From Thermoanaerobaculia bacterium (GTDB taxonomy: Bacteria > Acidobacteriota > Thermoanaerobaculia > UBA5066), in contig CAVRAY010000001.1 in the NCBI GenBank assembly GCA_963719225.1, forward strand, positions 1,568,001 to 1,632,000: a stretch of DNA of 64,000 bases. Direction: 5' to 3'. The translations under genes and the position numbers were made by a program. Below, one piece after another: positions 42,703-56,934 of this stretch (its first letter is position 1; every line of letters begins with the position of its first letter). The notes beneath the pieces were generated by a model. It was given only the letters and a program-made list of their open reading frames with translations. It ran no database searches and was not told the DNA's origin.

Positions 42703-44199
42703 TCAGCTCCTCTTCGGGGTCTCCGGCGACGATCGGGTCGGCTCGTTGGACGGCTCGGCGTCGCGCCGGACGCCCATCGCCCGCGCGCGTTCGTCCGCGG
42801 TCCGCTCGAGCTGCGCGAGGCGCGAAAGGCGCTCGGCCTCCTTGTCCCGCTCGATTTGCTCGGTCTTCTTCTTCGCCGAGCCCAGGAGCGAGCTCGCGGC
42901 CAGAACGAGCTTCAGATGAAACTGGCCCGTGAACTTCGTGTTCTCGCCGAAGGCGCCCACGAACGAGGCGCCGCTCAAGCGGGCCTCCGAGAAATCCGCG
43001 CCGCCGATGTTCGCCTGCTTGAAGGAGGCGCCCTCGAGCTTCGCGCCGACGAGCTGGGCGAAGCGCACGTCACTGCCCGAGAAATCGGCGTCGTCGGCTT
43101 CGATCCCGAAGAGGTTGGCGCCGGACAGGTTCCCTCCCACCGCGATCGCGCTCGAGAGCCGCGAGCGCTTGAGGTTTGCGCGCCTCAGGTTCGTCCGCGC
43201 GAGCTTGACCTTGGCCATGATGCAGCCTTCGAGATTCGCCTCTGAGAGATCGGCCCCCGAGAGATCGGCTTCCGTGAAGTTCGAGCCGCGCAGGTTCGCG
43301 CGAGAGCCGTTGGCCTCCAGAAGACGTGCGGCCGTGAAGTTGGCCATCCGCATGCGGGGCGTCCTCAGGTCGATCTTGTCGAGCATGGCCCCCGTGAAGT
43401 CGGTCTCCTCGAGCTGCGCCCCGGTGAAGGTGCTGCCCCTCAGGTCCGCCCGATGGGCGCTCGTCTTGCGCATGACGGCTTCGGAGAAGTTCGCGGCCTG
43501 GGCCACGACGCGCTCGAAATCGGCCTCGGAGAGATCGGCTCCCGTGAAATCGGCGCCGTTCGCCTCGGCGCCGCGGAAGACGGCGCGCTGAAGCTTCGCG
43601 CCCTTGAAAGACGTTCCCGTGAGCTTGGCGTCGCGGAAGAACGCGAGGGTCAGGTTCGCCTTGTCGAATCGGCCCTTCCGGTAGGTGACTCCGTCGAAGA
43701 CCGCCTGCGTGAGATCGGTGCCCTCGAAAACGCATCGCTCGAGCTGGGCGCCCCGGAAGTTCGCGTAGAGGAGGCGCCCGAAGGAGAAATCGGTGGCCGT
43801 GAAATCGGTTCCGTCGAGCTTCGCACCCGTCATGTCGACGGCGGTCATGCTGCATTCGCGCACGGTGGCGCTCCTCAGGGTCGAGTTGCGGAAGATCGCG
43901 CCGACGAAGGAGACCCTGTCGAGGACGAGATAGTCGAGGTTCGTGTCGGAGAGATCGACCCGGTCGAGCTTCGAGCCGTTGAACGAAGCCCCCGTGAAGT
44001 GGGCCCGAGCCAGCGACGCGCCCGAGAGGTTGCAGCCCTCGACCTTCGCGCGCGAAAAGTCGGCTCCGGAAAGGTTCTTTCCCGAGAAATCGAGCGCGTG
44101 AAGGCGTGCGTCCGTGAAGTCCGGCGTCAGGGACGGCCGTTCGGCTCGCCAGTCGTTCCAGTCGGGTGCCTGAACGTGTTCGAGGTGTTCTGGGTTCAC
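42703..44199 (-). CDS. Pentapeptide repeat protein
   Basis: About 400 aa of A(D/N)(L/F)xx repeats; WNDWR N-terminus; charged C-terminal tail. Confidence 0.92.
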   Translation of the reverse strand: MNPEHLEHVQAPDWNDWRAERPSLTPDFTDARLHALDFSGKNLSGADFSRAKVEGCNLSGASLARAHFTGASFNGSKLDRVDLSDTNLDYLVLDRVSFVGAIFRNSTLRSATVRECSMTAVDMTGAKLDGTDFTATDFSFGRLLYANFRGAQLERCVFEGTDLTQAVFDGVTYRKGRFDKANLTLAFFRDAKLTGTSFKGAKLQRAVFRGAEANGADFTGADLSEADFERVVAQAANFSEAVMRKTSAHRADLRGSTFTGAQLEETDFTGAMLDKIDLRTPRMRMANFTAARLLEANGSRANLRGSNFTEADLSGADLSEANLEGCIMAKVKLARTNLRRANLKRSRLSSAIAVGGNLSGANLFGIEADDADFSGSDVRFAQLVGAKLEGASFKQANIGGADFSEARLSGASFVGAFGENTKFTGQFHLKLVLAASSLLGSAKKKTEQIERDKEAERLSRLAQLERTADERARAMGVRRDAEPSNEPTRSSPETPKRS

Positions 44200-51658: not shown

Positions 51659-52696
51659 CTAATACCGCACGAGCTTGCGCACGGCGGCCAGCAGCGTCTT
51701 CACGTTCGGGAGGAACGCCTCCTCCAGGGGTGGAGAGTACGGCACCGGAGTGTCGGGCGCCGTCACGCGCAGGATCGGGCCGTCCAGCCATTCGAACGCT
51801 TTCTCGGAAAGCGTGGCGGCGATCTCGGCTCCGAGCCCGCCCGTGCGCGTGTCCTCGTGGAGAACGAGGCACTTTCCGGTGCGCTTGACGGACTCGAGGA
51901 TCGCTTCCTCGTCCAGGGGCAGGAGCGTCCTGAGGTCGAGCACCTCGGCCGAGACGCCGTCTTTCTCGAGAATCGCGGCGGCTTCGAGGGCCATCCAGAG
52001 CATCGCGCCGTAGGTGACGATCGTGAGGTCCCGTCCGGCCCGGCGCACGGCGGCCTTTCCGATCGGGACGACGTAGTCCTCCTCGGGCACGCGGTCTTTC
52101 ACCCTTCTGTAGAGGAACTTGTGCTCCAGGAAGATGACCGGATCGTCGTCGCGGATCGCGGCCTTCAGGAGCCCTTTCGCGTCGTAAGCGGTCGCGGGCG
52201 CCACGACCTTGAGGCCCGGCGTCTTGACGAAGTACATCTCGGGGCTCTGCGAGTGATACGGCCCTCCGTGGACTCCGGCGCCCGACGGACCGCGCACGAC
52301 CATCGGGACGCCGACGCCGGTCCGGTACCGGTTCTTGGCCGCGAAGTTCGTGAGGAGGTCGAAGGCGCGCGAGATGAAGTCGATGAACTGCATCTCCGCT
52401 ACGGGACGCATGCCTCGCATCGCCGCCCCGATCGCGCCGCCGACGATGCCCTCCTCGGCGAGCGGCGTGTCGAGGACGCGTGCCTTGCCGAATCTCTCCT
52501 GCAGCCCCTCCGTCGCCTTGAAAGCGCCGCCGTAGACGCCTACGTCCTGGCCGAGGACGAAGACCCGTTCGTCGCGCTCCATCTCCTCGAAGAGCGCCTG
52601 TCGGATGGCCTCGAGGTAGAAGATCTCGACGCCGGCGGTCGCGTCGGCCGTCAGGGTCAGCGCCGCACCGCTTCGGGCGACTCGCGGGTCTGCCAT
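51659..52696 (-). CDS. 2-oxoacid dehydrogenase E1 beta subunit
   Basis: DVGVYGGAF, DTPLAE, EMQFIDF, HSQSPE, DPVIFLEHK. Confidence 0.92.
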   Translation of the reverse strand: MADPRVARSGAALTLTADATAGVEIFYLEAIRQALFEEMERDERVFVLGQDVGVYGGAFKATEGLQERFGKARVLDTPLAEEGIVGGAIGAAMRGMRPVAEMQFIDFISRAFDLLTNFAAKNRYRTGVGVPMVVRGPSGAGVHGGPYHSQSPEMYFVKTPGLKVVAPATAYDAKGLLKAAIRDDDPVIFLEHKFLYRRVKDRVPEEDYVVPIGKAAVRRAGRDLTIVTYGAMLWMALEAAAILEKDGVSAEVLDLRTLLPLDEEAILESVKRTGKCLVLHEDTRTGGLGAEIAATLSEKAFEWLDGPILRVTAPDTPVPYSPPLEEAFLPNVKTLLAAVRKLVRY

Positions 52697-53712
52697 CAGA
52701 GGCCCCCCGTGAAAACACCGGCGCGGCTGCGCGCGAGGATGCTCTCGTCGGCGTAGACGCCGCGGAAGGCGAGGGCCGGGTCGGGGAACGGCGAGGCCTC
52801 GGCGAACGCCACGTCCGCGTCGAGCTGCCTCTCCACCTCTTCGTGGATCCTGTGCCGCTCGGCGGCCGGCATCGCGCCGGAGGACTCGAGTGCGGATTCG
52901 AAGCGGGCAATCGGGTCCCGGGCGCGCCAGGCGGTCAGCTCTTTCGGATCGACGTACGCCTGCGCGTCGTGCTCGGCGTGACCCTTCATGCGGTAGGTCT
53001 TGCACTCGAGAAGAGTGGGACCGCCGCCCAGACGCGCTCGACTCACCGCCGTGCGGGCGGCCTCGTACACGGCGAGCGCGTCGTTTCCGTCGACGACCTC
53101 GCCGGGAATCCCGTAGCCGGGGGCCTTGTCGGCGAGTGTCCGGGCCGCACACTGCTTTTCGTAGGGCGTCGAGTACGCCCACCCGTTGAACTCCACGACG
53201 AGGACGAGCGGAAGCCTCTGCACGGCGGCGAAGTTCAGGCCTTCGTGGAACGCTCCCACGGACGTCCCGCCGTCTCCGAGGTACGTCATGCCGACCGTGC
53301 TCTTGCCCTGCATGCGATCGGCGAGGAGCATTCCCGCCACGACCGGGACGAGCGTCCCGAGCATCGCGATCGGCGAATAGACGCCCTTCTCCGGGACGGA
53401 GAAGTGGAGGTTCGCGTCCTTGCCGCCGGAGGGGGCGGTCGCGCGCGCCATGTATTGCGTGAGGATGTCGCGCGGCGAAATGCCGCGCGCGAGAACGGAG
53501 CCGAGGTTCCGGATGAGCGGCGCGAGGAGGTCTCCCTCGTCGAGCGCGAACGCGCTCGCCACGGAGGTCGCTTCCTGCCCGAGCGAGCGGTAGAGGCCGC
53601 CCACGACCTTCCCCTGGCGGTACAGGTTCACGAGCCGCTCCTCGAGCAGCCGATTCAACAGCATGCAGCGATAGAGGTCGGCGAGGCGTTGCGGCGGCAG
53701 AGACGTCGTCAT
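52696..53712 (-). CDS. 2-oxoacid dehydrogenase E1 alpha subunit
   Basis: GQEA, GDGG...N ThDP motif, VDGND, TYRMKGHAEHD. Confidence 0.92.
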   Translation of the reverse strand: MTTSLPPQRLADLYRCMLLNRLLEERLVNLYRQGKVVGGLYRSLGQEATSVASAFALDEGDLLAPLIRNLGSVLARGISPRDILTQYMARATAPSGGKDANLHFSVPEKGVYSPIAMLGTLVPVVAGMLLADRMQGKSTVGMTYLGDGGTSVGAFHEGLNFAAVQRLPLVLVVEFNGWAYSTPYEKQCAARTLADKAPGYGIPGEVVDGNDALAVYEAARTAVSRARLGGGPTLLECKTYRMKGHAEHDAQAYVDPKELTAWRARDPIARFESALESSGAMPAAERHRIHEEVERQLDADVAFAEASPFPDPALAFRGVYADESILARSRAGVFTGGL

Positions 53713-53839
53713 CTTCGGGAGCTCGTCCGGATTGCGGAGCGAGCCGCGATTATCAAGGTCCGCTCCGGCGAGGGCAAACGAGCCGGCGAAGCGCCTTGCC
53801 CCGTCCATCCGGGGCGTGTAACGTCATTCCGTCGGACGA

Positions 53840-55597
53840 GTGATGGACACGAGCGGATACGAGTTTCCCGCCCGGCGGAACCTGCAAGTCTTCGCGTTCG
53901 ACCCGATGCGGGGCCGGACCGCCGGGAACCGCCTGACTCTGGGCGTCCCCTACGAACGCCTCGCTCCCGGGCCGCTCGGCCAGAGAGTGCAGGTGATCGA
54001 CTTCGACGGGACGAATCGCGTGTTCTACGTGCCCGTGGACCTCGAAGATCCCGCCGTCCTCATGAACGACGGCCTGCAGCCGTCCGAGTCGGACCCGCGC
54101 TTTCACCAGCAGATGGTCTACGCGGTGACGATGTCGGTCGTCGAGACGTTCGAGTCGGCCCTCGGGCGGAAGCTCGCTTTCCGCAGACAGAAGGCGCTGA
54201 GGCTCTTCCCGCATGCGTTCGAGGGAGAGAACGCCTTCTACGACCGGGAGCTCTCGGCCGTGCTCTTCGGGTTCTTCAAGGCCGACGAAAAGGATCCCGG
54301 CCCGAACCTCCCGGGCCAGACCGTCTTCACGTGTCTCTCGCACGACATCATCGCCCACGAGGTGACGCACGCGCTCGTCGATCGACTGAAGCCGTTTCTC
54401 ATCGAGGCCAGCAATCCCGACGTGTACGCGTTCCACGAGGGCTTTGCGGATCTCGTCGCCATCTTTCAGCACTTCACCTTGAAGGAGGTGCTGACCGATA
54501 CGATCCAGAAGACGCGGGGAGACCTCCGGTCGCCCGGGCCTCTCGCGGACCTCGCACAACAATTCGGTTACACGACGGGCCGCCGCGGAGCTCTCCGGAC
54601 GGCGATCGACAAGCCCGACCCGTCCCTGTATCGCACCTCGACGGAGCCGCACGAGAGGGGCTCGATCCTCGTCGCGGCGGTCTTCGACGCGTTCTTCGCC
54701 GTCTACCAGCGCCGCATCGAGGATCTGATCCGCATCGCCACGGGCGGAACCGGCCGGCTCCCCGAGGGCTACCTGCACCCCGATCTCGTGAACCGGATCG
54801 CGACCGAGGCCGCCAAGACCGCCCGGAATGTCCTGACGATGTGCGTGCGGGCCTTCGAATACCTGCCTCCGGTGGACGTGACCTACAGCGACTTCCTGCG
54901 TGCCGTCGTGACGGCCGACTTCGAGACCGTTCCCGCGGACGAGCGAGGCTTGCGCGCTTCGCTGATCGAGGCGTTCCGGCTCCGCGGGGTCTATCCGGAG
55001 GGGCAGGGGGTCGTTTCGCTCGCGGAGGAATCGCTCCTGTGGAGGCCTCCCGAGGGGCCCCTCAAGCTGCCTTTCGATCCTTCGCGGGAGGCCCTCGTCG
55101 TCAGCGCCCAGGCTTTCGACCGCGGACCGAGGCGGGGGGAGCCTTCGGCTCCCGGAGCGGACGAGCGAAGTGCTCTCGACCAATGGGCGGGCCTCCTCGG
55201 GGTCTTCGCGAGCGAGCATCGCCGCGAGCTGGGCCTCGACCCGGACGTCAAGCCCCGCCTCGAAGGCTTCCACACCGTCTTTCGCTTTTCGCCGGAGGGC
55301 CGCCTCGTCGTGGAGCTGGTCGCCCAGTTCGTCCAGGAAGACCACGAAGCCGAAAAGGACCCGGCCTACGGCGGCGTCAAGGTCCTGGGCGGCACGACGG
55401 TGATCGCGTCGGTCAACGGCGACATCCGTTACGTGATCGCCAAGCCCCTTACGAAAGAGCGGCGCGAGGTCCAGCTCGAATTCGCGGCGGCGAGTGACCG
55501 GGAGGATCCGATGCTCGCGTGCGGGCGGGAAGGCTACGAGGCGCATCGGCTGAGATTCCGGAACTTCGCGCGTTTGCACGCGTCGAGGCCGCGTTGA
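53840..55597 (+). CDS. Cytoplasmic gluzincin metallopeptidase (M4/thermolysin-like)
   Basis: ENAFY, DIIAHEVTH, FHEGFAD, EPHERG; no signal peptide. Confidence 0.8.
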   Translation: MMDTSGYEFPARRNLQVFAFDPMRGRTAGNRLTLGVPYERLAPGPLGQRVQVIDFDGTNRVFYVPVDLEDPAVLMNDGLQPSESDPRFHQQMVYAVTMSVVETFESALGRKLAFRRQKALRLFPHAFEGENAFYDRELSAVLFGFFKADEKDPGPNLPGQTVFTCLSHDIIAHEVTHALVDRLKPFLIEASNPDVYAFHEGFADLVAIFQHFTLKEVLTDTIQKTRGDLRSPGPLADLAQQFGYTTGRRGALRTAIDKPDPSLYRTSTEPHERGSILVAAVFDAFFAVYQRRIEDLIRIATGGTGRLPEGYLHPDLVNRIATEAAKTARNVLTMCVRAFEYLPPVDVTYSDFLRAVVTADFETVPADERGLRASLIEAFRLRGVYPEGQGVVSLAEESLLWRPPEGPLKLPFDPSREALVVSAQAFDRGPRRGEPSAPGADERSALDQWAGLLGVFASEHRRELGLDPDVKPRLEGFHTVFRFSPEGRLVVELVAQFVQEDHEAEKDPAYGGVKVLGGTTVIASVNGDIRYVIAKPLTKERREVQLEFAAASDREDPMLACGREGYEAHRLRFRNFARLHASRPR

Positions 55598-55604
55598 GGC
55601 GCCC

Positions 55605-56915
55605 ATGAGCGCGTCCCTTTCGGTCCGCATGTACGACGTGGGCTTCGGAGACTCCTTCCTGTTCACGTTCCCCGCCAAGGGCGGCCGGCGTCCGAAAGTC
55701 CTCGTGGACTGCGGAGTCCATCAGGGTGGACCGGGGCCGGTGCCGATGAAGAAGATCGTGGAAGCGATCGTCGAGGACGTGACGGAAAAGGGCCAGCCGC
55801 GCATCGACCTCGTCATCGCCACGCATCGGCACCGCGATCACGTCTCGGGCTTCGAGCAGGCCGCGTGGAAGGACGTGCGCGTGGACGAGGTCTGGATGCC
55901 GTGGACCGAGCATCCGACCGATCCGGAGGCGCGGGCGATCCGCGAAGCCCAGGCGAAGAAAGCGCAGAAACTGGCGCTGGCGTTCGCCCGCCTCGATCTG
56001 CCGGCCGATCAGAAGCAGTCCCTCCAGGCCGTGGCCGGGAACAACCTGACGAACGCGAAGGCGATGGAGACCCTCCACGAGGGGTTCAAGGGCGCGCCGG
56101 CCCGCCGTTTCCTGCCCGAGAAGGCCGGAGCACGCTCGTGGAAGGAGGACCGGCTGCCCGGCACGACCGTGCATCTCCTGGGGCCCTCCCGAAGCCGGGA
56201 CACCATCCGCGACATGAATCCGCCTCCTGACGAGAGCTTCCTTCGGGCAGCGGCCCTGGAAGCGGCTGGAAAGCTCCTTTCCCCGTTCGAATCGCGCTGG
56301 TACTTCTCCGCCGCCGGAAAGGACTTCGAGGCCTGGTGGTCGAGGCTCGCGCGCTCCCGTCATGAGAAACCGGACGAAGATCAGGACGCGAACCTCCGGC
56401 CCGATGATTCCCTCTTCGCGGCGCGGTGGCTCGACTTCGTGGGGCTCCGCCGCGCCGACCTGAAAGCTGTCGAGGAGAAGGGCAAGGACGATCCCTTCGC
56501 CGCGGCGGTCGCCCTCGAACAGGCGGTGAACGGCACGAGCCTGATGCTGATGCTCGAGATCGGCAAGGCGTTTCTCCTCCTTCCCGGCGACGCGCAATGG
56601 GGGACGTGGCACGAGGCGCTCGACGATGCCGACTCGGCCGAGCTCCTGAAGAAGACGACCTTCTACAAGGTGGGCCACCACGGCAGCCACAACGCCACGC
56701 CCGTCGACTTCGTGAAGCTGCTCAAGGGAGAGGGTCTCACCGCGATGGTCTCGACGGAGACGAAGCCGTTCGACACCATTCCCCGCCTGCCCCTCCTCGA
56801 AGCGCTGAAGGCGAAGTCGAAACGCATCGTGCGCAGCGACGACGCAAAGGCGGACGTGAAGCCGCCGTTCAAGCGCGTCGACGCGATCCGGACCGACCTC
56901 GAGCTCGCGGTCTAG
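55605..56915 (+). CDS. MBL-fold metallo-hydrolase (ComEC/Rec2-like) with large insertions
   Basis: DVGFGD, VDCG, THRHRDH, NGTS, PGDAQ, KVGHHGSHN. Confidence 0.85.
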   Translation: MSASLSVRMYDVGFGDSFLFTFPAKGGRRPKVLVDCGVHQGGPGPVPMKKIVEAIVEDVTEKGQPRIDLVIATHRHRDHVSGFEQAAWKDVRVDEVWMPWTEHPTDPEARAIREAQAKKAQKLALAFARLDLPADQKQSLQAVAGNNLTNAKAMETLHEGFKGAPARRFLPEKAGARSWKEDRLPGTTVHLLGPSRSRDTIRDMNPPPDESFLRAAALEAAGKLLSPFESRWYFSAAGKDFEAWWSRLARSRHEKPDEDQDANLRPDDSLFAARWLDFVGLRRADLKAVEEKGKDDPFAAAVALEQAVNGTSLMLMLEIGKAFLLLPGDAQWGTWHEALDDADSAELLKKTTFYKVGHHGSHNATPVDFVKLLKGEGLTAMVSTETKPFDTIPRLPLLEALKAKSKRIVRSDDAKADVKPPFKRVDAIRTDLELAV

Positions 56916-56934
56916 GTCCGCTCGTCACCGGCTC

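Follow-up and report, generated by a model that had tools for sequence, protein, structure and literature searches.

A gluzincin peptidase gene and a ComEC-like hydrolase gene form a mobile, co-inherited pair that may encode a protease-gated nuclease

In the 64,000-nucleotide window analyzed here (Thermoanaerobaculia bacterium contig CAVRAY010000001.1, positions 1,568,001 to 1,632,000), two plus-strand open reading frames (ORFs) encoding a gluzincin peptidase and a ComEC/Pce-type hydrolase of the metallo-β-lactamase (MBL) fold lie 7 nt apart. An earlier interpretation made from the letters alone (the sequence-only reading), which proposed a protease-activated defense module, was correct about both ORFs and about their position between two housekeeping operons. 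The pair is flanked by a divergent pyruvate-dehydrogenase-type operon (minus strand) and asd (plus strand), names that reflect our reading of the translations, and it has the same GC content as these flanks. Its closest named relatives are from Thermoanaerobaculia (Acidobacteriota). A GAGG upstream of the MBL gene overlaps the peptidase stop codon, which suggests translational coupling of the two genes. A promoter scan of the locus revealed nothing beyond the divergent promoter of the neighboring operon, and terminators occurred at the level expected by chance. The insert and the features of the peptidase gene are as follows:

53785..56925 (no strand): variable-slot insert of 3.1 kb (approximate limits) between the divergent pdhA-type and asd promoters
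53843..55597 (plus): gluzincin peptidase ORF, 584 aa from the ATG at 53843, with an alternative GTG start two codons upstream (53840); residues ~7 to 397 form the M36/M4 catalytic fold in the AlphaFold2 (AF2) model
54230..54241 (plus): NAFY, residues 130 to 133; N130 is kept in 111 of 112 paired peptidases
54356..54451 (plus): zinc motif HEVTH (residues 172 to 176) and third ligand E199 in EGFAD (residues 199 to 203); H172, E173, and H176 are kept in 111 of 112, and E199 and D203 in 112 of 112
54593..54652 (plus): L251-R252 and E268-x-H270; L251, R252, and H270 are each kept in 112 of 112
55040..55594 (plus): extra C-terminal domain, residues 400 to 584, with a weak likeness to FTP propeptides; candidate autoinhibitory or regulatory domain
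55565..55579 (plus): terminal FARLH, residues 575 to 579, an instance of the family motif [FLM]xx[LIVM]H

The AF2 model of the peptidase, with a predicted local distance difference test (pLDDT) score of 90.8, aligned with the M36 structure 7qp3 (VIA Z score, 18.1; root mean square deviation, 3.4; 307 aligned residues, with model residues 12 to 397 on chain residues 1 to 390), LasB (Z, 16.5), and thermolysin (Z, 15.8), and Foldseek concurred. The peptidase thus has a fold (Z, 15.6 to 18.1) and catalytic residues in common with M4 thermolysin and M36 fungalysin. All three motifs named by the sequence-only reading (NAFY, HEVTH, and EGFAD) are present, and N130, D168, H172, E173, H176, E199, D203, L251, R252, and H270 are each conserved in 111 or 112 of the 112 paired peptidases. 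We take these residues to be equivalent to the thermolysin catalytic set, NAFY presumably corresponding to the NAFW-type edge strand and the L251-R252 and H270 region to the substrate-binding Arg and the oxyanion His. By its HExxH motif, downstream Glu, and thermolysin fold, the peptidase belongs to the gluzincins. No family in Pfam (including M4 and M36), NCBIfam, or PADLOC matched it, and sequence searches of the PDB gave no match with the single peptidase and, with the peptidase profile, only aureolysin at an E value of 0.4 to 0.5. Its family accounted for 7,508 peptidase matches among 7,997 scored candidates.

Structural alignments place model residues 7 to 12 on residues 1 to 2 of the mature M4/M36 enzymes and end near residues 384 to 397. 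The peptidase therefore starts where the mature enzymes start, without the signal peptide and N-terminal FTP/PepSY propeptide of M4 and M36 proteins, and it carries an extra 185-aa domain at its C terminus (residues 400 to 584). A hydrophobic N terminus was found in none of 138 aligned peptidases, in agreement with the earlier claim that a signal peptide is lacking; the enzyme is thus predicted to be cytoplasmic. At three loci, a second gluzincin copy lies directly 5' of the usual pair (L009, 8189-9973; L011, 8158-9990; L056, 8025-9992). The zinc motifs of this copy are intact (checked in L009) and its terminal FxxLH is absent, so this copy may act as a partner that is constitutive or regulated in another way.

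The motif [FLM]xx[LIVM]H was detected at the C terminus of 72 of 86 nonredundant family members (mean of 4.4 and maximum of 10 in shuffles), a median of 5 residues before the stop. A similar terminal motif occurs in 7 of 23 ordinary M4/M36 propeptides, 4 of these 7 being close kin (e.g., WNTLH before the presumed mature start). HHalign comparisons of the C-terminal domain with 29 M4/M36 FTP propeptides gave E values of 0.002 to 0.05 and HHalign probabilities of 1 to 15%, with 66 to 67 columns matched collinearly over the helix and the FTP hairpins. The best value, obtained with one alignment (E, 0.0018; score, 26.1; probability, 15%), exceeded all 75 shuffles; for two other alignments (E, 0.011 and 0.052), the best shuffle equaled or exceeded the score. 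An FTP hidden Markov model scored a median of 0.2 bits on the C-terminal domains, barely above controls. Within Pfam, no family matched the domain (FTP reached an E value of 0.1 in 1 of 67 sequences), and we detected neither a likeness to the PepSY half of the propeptides (E, 0.5) nor a sequence match in the PDB; the best value in the ESM Atlas was 0.78. Gao and colleagues are said to have reported in 2010 that the terminal His of the propeptide ligates zinc in autoprocessed vibriolysin. Judged from its sequence, the C-terminal domain could be a relocated inhibitory propeptide and the protease a tail-inhibited zymogen, a possibility that we hold tentatively and treat as a lead, not as a result. 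FTP domains stop the premature activation of M4/M36 proteases (PMC5078317).

The features of the MBL gene are as follows:

55605..56915 (plus): ComEC/Pce-type MBL-fold hydrolase ORF, 436 aa, a predicted pro-nuclease
55824..55841 (plus): HRHRDH metal motif, residues 74 to 79; H74, H76, D78, and H79 are kept in 112 of 112
55902..56066 (plus): insertion 1, residues ~100 to 150, ending in N146-x-L148-T-N150-A-x-A-M; mean identity of residues 145 to 161, 68%
56187..56528 (plus): insertion 2, residues ~195 to 308, comprising a conserved low-confidence loop and a nonconserved acidic stretch
56211-56243 (plus): DMNPPPDESFL loop of insertion 2, residues 203 to 213 (M204, 95%; P206, 96%; L213, 91%; mean identity, 60%)
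56361-56408 (plus): acidic stretch HEKPDEDQDANLRPDD of insertion 2, residues 253 to 268, gapped in 71% of alignment rows (n = 138)
56529..56687 (plus): catalytic motifs NGTS (residues 309 to 312), GD (328 to 329), and HHGS (358 to 361); N309, S312, D329, H358, and H359 are kept in 112 of 112

The AF2 model of the MBL (pLDDT, 87.7) reached VIA Z scores of 20.8 against ComEC (9ic4) and 19.4 against Pce (1wra), and the best sequence matches of the protein are ComEC. The full ComEC-type motif set reported earlier is present, including DxGxGD at residues 11 to 16, and W100/E102, W335, and K355 are invariant residues specific to the family. With 256 of the 436 residues aligned, 180 are left unaligned to 9ic4. 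The gap between HxHxDH and NxxS is indeed long, although it measures 230 aa and not the roughly 220 aa first estimated. From the first His to HHGS, the window's MBL spans 284 aa (median of 264 in 111 family members), compared with 124 in 23 ComEC-like proteins and 166 to 237 in 5 distinct Avs1a-profile matches. This extra length is located in two places, after the EVWMPW strand (residues ~100 to 150) and after LGPS (residues ~195 to 308). By eye, EVWMPW and LGPS are the equivalents of EVYFNG and LIGPS, which precede the cut insertions of HamM; in place of the one insertion of the sequence-only reading there are two, located where HamM, Avs1a, and CanC carry the loops at which they are cut. Insertion 1 is a helical hairpin in the AF2 model, and its end appears by eye to correspond in position to the first site cut in HamM/VcMBL. 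In insertion 2, pLDDT values fall below 50 at residues 205 to 224, overlapping the 203 to 213 loop. The acidic loop previously suggested as the gate does exist; we rejected it in that role because it is lineage specific, with a mean identity of 9% versus 47% for the whole MBL (138 aligned rows). Residues 146 to 154 and 203 to 213, which are conserved unlike the acidic stretch, are better gate candidates.

Conserved pairing of the two genes, as the sequence-only reading had anticipated, was recovered from both sides. In a peptidase-first search of GTDB, the MBL gene lay directly downstream in 72 of 79 loci (the top 79 among 577 or more relatives, spanning seven named phyla), and the other 7 end no more than 265 nt from the peptidase match. 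An MBL-first search gave 80 metagenome loci, of which 78 were scored and 61 had at least 600 nt upstream; a gluzincin gene was located upstream in 59 of the 61 (58 by script, plus L128, which the script missed). In the window's phylum, MBL-profile searches of 300 sampled genomes yielded 10 loci, spread over 8 genomes, and in two other phyla, they yielded 5 and 3 loci in 400 genomes each; all 18 have a gluzincin upstream (10/10, 5/5, and 3/3), one of them apparently broken (L223). Two of the last three loci are from unpublished genomes (G760 and G847), without which the count is 16 of 16. Every one of the 35 plasmid records with an MBL match has a peptidase match too, within 1 kb in 29 of them (best place). 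Trees of the two genes from 112 pairs have 57 of 109 splits in common; 42 of 49 strong peptidase splits recur in the MBL tree, there are no strong conflicts, and patristic distances correlate with an r of 0.89 (no more than 0.18 in 999 shuffles). This match reflects joint inheritance, not binding.

No conserved third gene or separate sensor gene was found beside the pair, the commonest extra gene being patatin-like (22 of 172 loci). The earlier description "sensor-less" therefore holds with respect to a separate gene; the peptidase itself has a candidate regulator in its 185-aa C-terminal domain, and an S8 domain is fused to it in one subclade. Two loci have unusual arrangements. L274 (G1086) carries a divergent gluzincin-MBL pair with a second MBL upstream and, by eye, two astacin/matrixin-like zinc peptidases downstream. 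In L011 (13779-21035), two versions of the pair face each other on one contig, with SIR2 and nSTAND1 genes after the second.

The pair is patchily distributed, as predicted. Strong matches occurred in 9 of 301, 6 of 401, and 4 of 401 sampled genomes (centers included), and among 28 genomes of the genus, an orthologue (90 to 91% identity) was present in 2 and a relative with 33% identity in 1. One of the two orthologues is at the same site, and a tRNA-Ser gene lies 68 nt beyond the end of the other. Of the 28 genomes, 15 have nothing in the slot between the two operons, 8 have other cargo there, and 1 has this module; the remaining 4 are unresolved. In other genomes of the genus (L170, L171, L172, L173, L175, and L176), the slot contains one to four tandem genes for small proteins with signal-peptide-like N termini, presumably bearing an Hcp-like motif; a secreted Hcp-like family would be odd. 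The start assigned to the neighboring window ORF 52696-53808 (minus) is probably too early, since homologs start with MTTSL at ~53712, a start that is preceded by a promoter-like site at 53777-53749. Elsewhere in the window, 42703-44199 (minus) encodes, by eye, a 498-aa pentapeptide-repeat protein whose gene diverges from that of an AAA ATPase.

Plasmid copies have a different setting. We viewed 10 of the 35 plasmid records, chosen from the match list for taxonomic spread, and 5 of the 10 loci adjoin named defense systems: (i) between type III CBASS and Hachiman, near DarTG; (ii) after CBASS and a WYL gene, before a MoxR-trypsin cluster; (iii) amid restriction and methylase genes; (iv) near a Hachiman-type DUF1837 gene and an N6 methylase; and (v) next to two SIR2 genes. 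The other five have looser conflict-type neighbors (ThiF/JAB, caspase, and CHAT). The PADLOC neighbor check covered 68 neighbor genes plus 30 hand-picked from other loci, and Septu adjoins L052 and L054 among the latter loci. No viral copies were found in IMG/VR with six peptide patterns. The association with defense islands suggested by the sequence-only reading thus applies to plasmid copies and not to the window's own site, and a defense setting for the pair is likely, not universal.

The defining work on protease-gated MBL nucleases dates from 2025 and involved serine and cysteine proteases: the main texts of PMC12799240 and PMC12642450 describe MBLs beside trypsin or caspase proteases as pro-DNases that proteolysis opens, two cuts having been mapped in the trypsin-linked MBLs, and Evans et al. 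(PMC12642450) recognize there three MBL clades, with trypsin, caspase, and S8 partners. HamMAB, Avs1a/Avs1b, VcMBL-Avs2, and AtMBL-Avs4 are likewise described as having a ComEC-like MBL with two insertions in the same places, and trypsin-MBL modules, like the gluzincin pair, have a co-evolving protease in an adjacent gene and reside in defense islands (main texts of PMC12799240 and PMC12642450). Compared with these modules, the window's protease is a zinc gluzincin, is encoded upstream, and has no sensor fusion, whereas its MBL has HxHxDH instead of HxDxDH and lacks the late H-P motif. Canu (CanABC) also has a protease gene upstream of the nuclease, no NTPase sensor, and variable accessory genes, according to the main text of PMC12799240; its partner is a caspase, whereas the window pair has a gluzincin and no conserved CanB-like third gene. 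The window's MBL scored 43 bits on the Avs1a profile NF041809 (cutoff, 420), 32 bits on the 6A-MBL profile NF058524 (220), and 33 bits on the ComEC profile TIGR00361 (190), and it is a stand-alone protein, whereas ComEC has a membrane competence domain fused to its MBL. By the tests run, the pair falls outside Avs1a/HamM, Canu, 6A-MBL, and ComEC.

We found no description of a gluzincin-MBL pair in the literature, including passages of PMC7159879 and PMC13069673. Neither the main text of PMC12799240 nor its preprint uses the words "metalloprotease," "thermolysin," or "peptidase," and PMC12642450 does not use "metalloprotease," "thermolysin," or "zincin," so the claim of a different protease class stands against these texts. 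Tuck et al. (PMC12799240, Fig. 4A/fig. S2) indicate nucleases beside "other diverse" protease families, which may include this clade, and the supplementary PDF of Evans et al. may likewise show the pair. In a tree of 68 MBLs (rooted on ComEC; quick LG+G4 search, with thin sampling outside the family), the 39 gluzincin-linked MBLs form one clade (Shimodaira-Hasegawa-like approximate likelihood ratio test [SH-aLRT], 98). A separate clade (SH-aLRT, 99) contains 2 trypsin-linked, 9 S8-only-linked, and 4 other MBLs (1 caspase linked and 2 patatin linked by reading of the neighbors).

Evans et al. name an S8-associated MBL clade 3 in the Fig. 1B legend of PMC12642450 without testing it, and one subclade of the gluzincin family has an S8 subtilase fused N-terminal to the gluzincin. 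This fusion was found in 15 of 79 peptidase-first loci, 0 of 80 metagenome loci, and 3 of 10 phylum-sample loci, all within a single subclade in which some members lack S8, leaving the gluzincin as the constant partner. An S8 protease as the true activator was rejected for the window, as it is absent from the window pair and from 64 of 79 and 80 of 80 loci. Pairs of an S8 subtilase and an MBL without a gluzincin are common in Acidobacteriota (L246/L268, L257, L258, L260-L262, and L264-L267), and this S8-only clade (9 rows) is probably a likelier match to clade 3 than is the gluzincin subclade. One patatin family recurs beside long-insertion MBLs of several clades (L243/L269, L244/L270, and L262), and no protease is evident beside the patatin-MBL pairs of L269 and L270.

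On balance, we favor the interpretation that the pair is a mobile, co-inherited, and likely anti-phage module in which a protease gates a latent MBL nuclease. The ComEC-like hydrolase would be a latent DNase, DNA being its presumed substrate, kept closed by its two insertions. Cleavage of these insertions by the zinc protease, which lacks a signal peptide, would unleash the MBL as a suicide switch against phage. Thermolysin-type enzymes cut before hydrophobic residues, and cleavage would accordingly be most likely near N146-L148 and within the 203 to 213 loop. The protease may be held off by its own C-terminal domain, with the FxxLH tail in the cleft like the end of an M4 propeptide, and infection would free it by binding or via another protease (e.g., the S8 domain fused to the gluzincin of one subclade). 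A more specific version, in which a complete two-gene sensor-protease-DNase system found in at least eight phyla is a fourth, independently evolved class of protease-gated nuclease immunity, its thermolysin-type protease having a C-terminal propeptide that plugs the zinc site with its FxxLH tail and is itself the phage sensor, strikes us as doubtful.

Several observations weigh against a protease-gated nuclease. There is no conserved sensor gene, the likeness of the C-terminal domain to propeptides is weak (15% HHalign probability at best), and the congruence of the trees is explained by linkage alone. No defense gene is present at the window's site, where the other slot occupants are secreted proteins and a transposase; the plasmid count of defense neighbors comes without a matched control, and clear PADLOC defense neighbors were found at just 2 of 10 unbiased chromosomal phylum loci. 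AF2 gives insertion 1 as ordered helices, whereas the main text of Tuck et al. (PMC12799240) describes disordered loops, and the separate position of the window's MBL clade means that gating may not be inherited from the trypsin-, caspase-, or S8-linked MBLs. The late H-P motif of HamM/VcMBL/AtMBL is I/V/M-P here (HP in 4 of 111), and Pce, a phosphorylcholine esterase, nearly ties with ComEC in structure.

These last two points, along with the family-specific invariant residues, the patatin-like genes, and the DUF2235 and PLD-like genes by several plasmid copies, would also suit a protease-gated MBL acting, with flanking phospholipases, on a non-DNA phosphoester (i.e., a membrane lipid head group, a phosphocholine-type ester, or a nucleotide signal). 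However, the same patatin family flanks MBLs of the Avs1a-like and S8-only clades (L243, L244, and L262), 10 of 23 ComEC-like proteins likewise lack the H-P motif, and ComEC provides the best sequence matches; we consider this substrate unlikely, albeit the least unlikely of the rivals. Alternatively, the MBL could be toxic as made and the protease could continuously degrade or bind it, so that inhibition of the protease, by a phage protease inhibitor or translation shut-off, would free the toxin. The protease gene is first and apparently translationally coupled, as antitoxin genes generally are; no sensor would be needed; pairing is near-obligate from the MBL side; and the tandem extra peptidases of L009, L011, and L056 have no MBL of their own. 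This arrangement is nevertheless quite unlikely, given that the two insertions fit a pro-nuclease, that conservation of the C-terminal domain points to a protease under regulation and not to a constitutive one, and that Canu, in the main text of PMC12799240, also has its protease upstream. The least probable of the explanations is a mobile housekeeping or stress cassette that combines peptide turnover with a metallo-hydrolase and plays no part in phage defense. Many chromosomal copies, including the window's, do lie amid ordinary genes, and the Mesorhizobium copies adjoin a cyclase/P450-peroxidase cluster, but the incidence in sampled genomes is low and scattered, plasmid copies are repeatedly placed amid CBASS, Hachiman, and restriction genes, and no metabolic neighbors are held in common.

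If protease gating is correct, a zinc metalloprotease would be the third catalytic class to gate MBL nucleases, on a separate MBL lineage, which would point to convergent gating, and a common unannotated protein family would gain a function. If, moreover, the C-terminal domain is a relocated propeptide, the pair would show how an intracellular switch arose by the rewiring of a secreted digestive enzyme. As the module consists of two genes only, it is directly testable.

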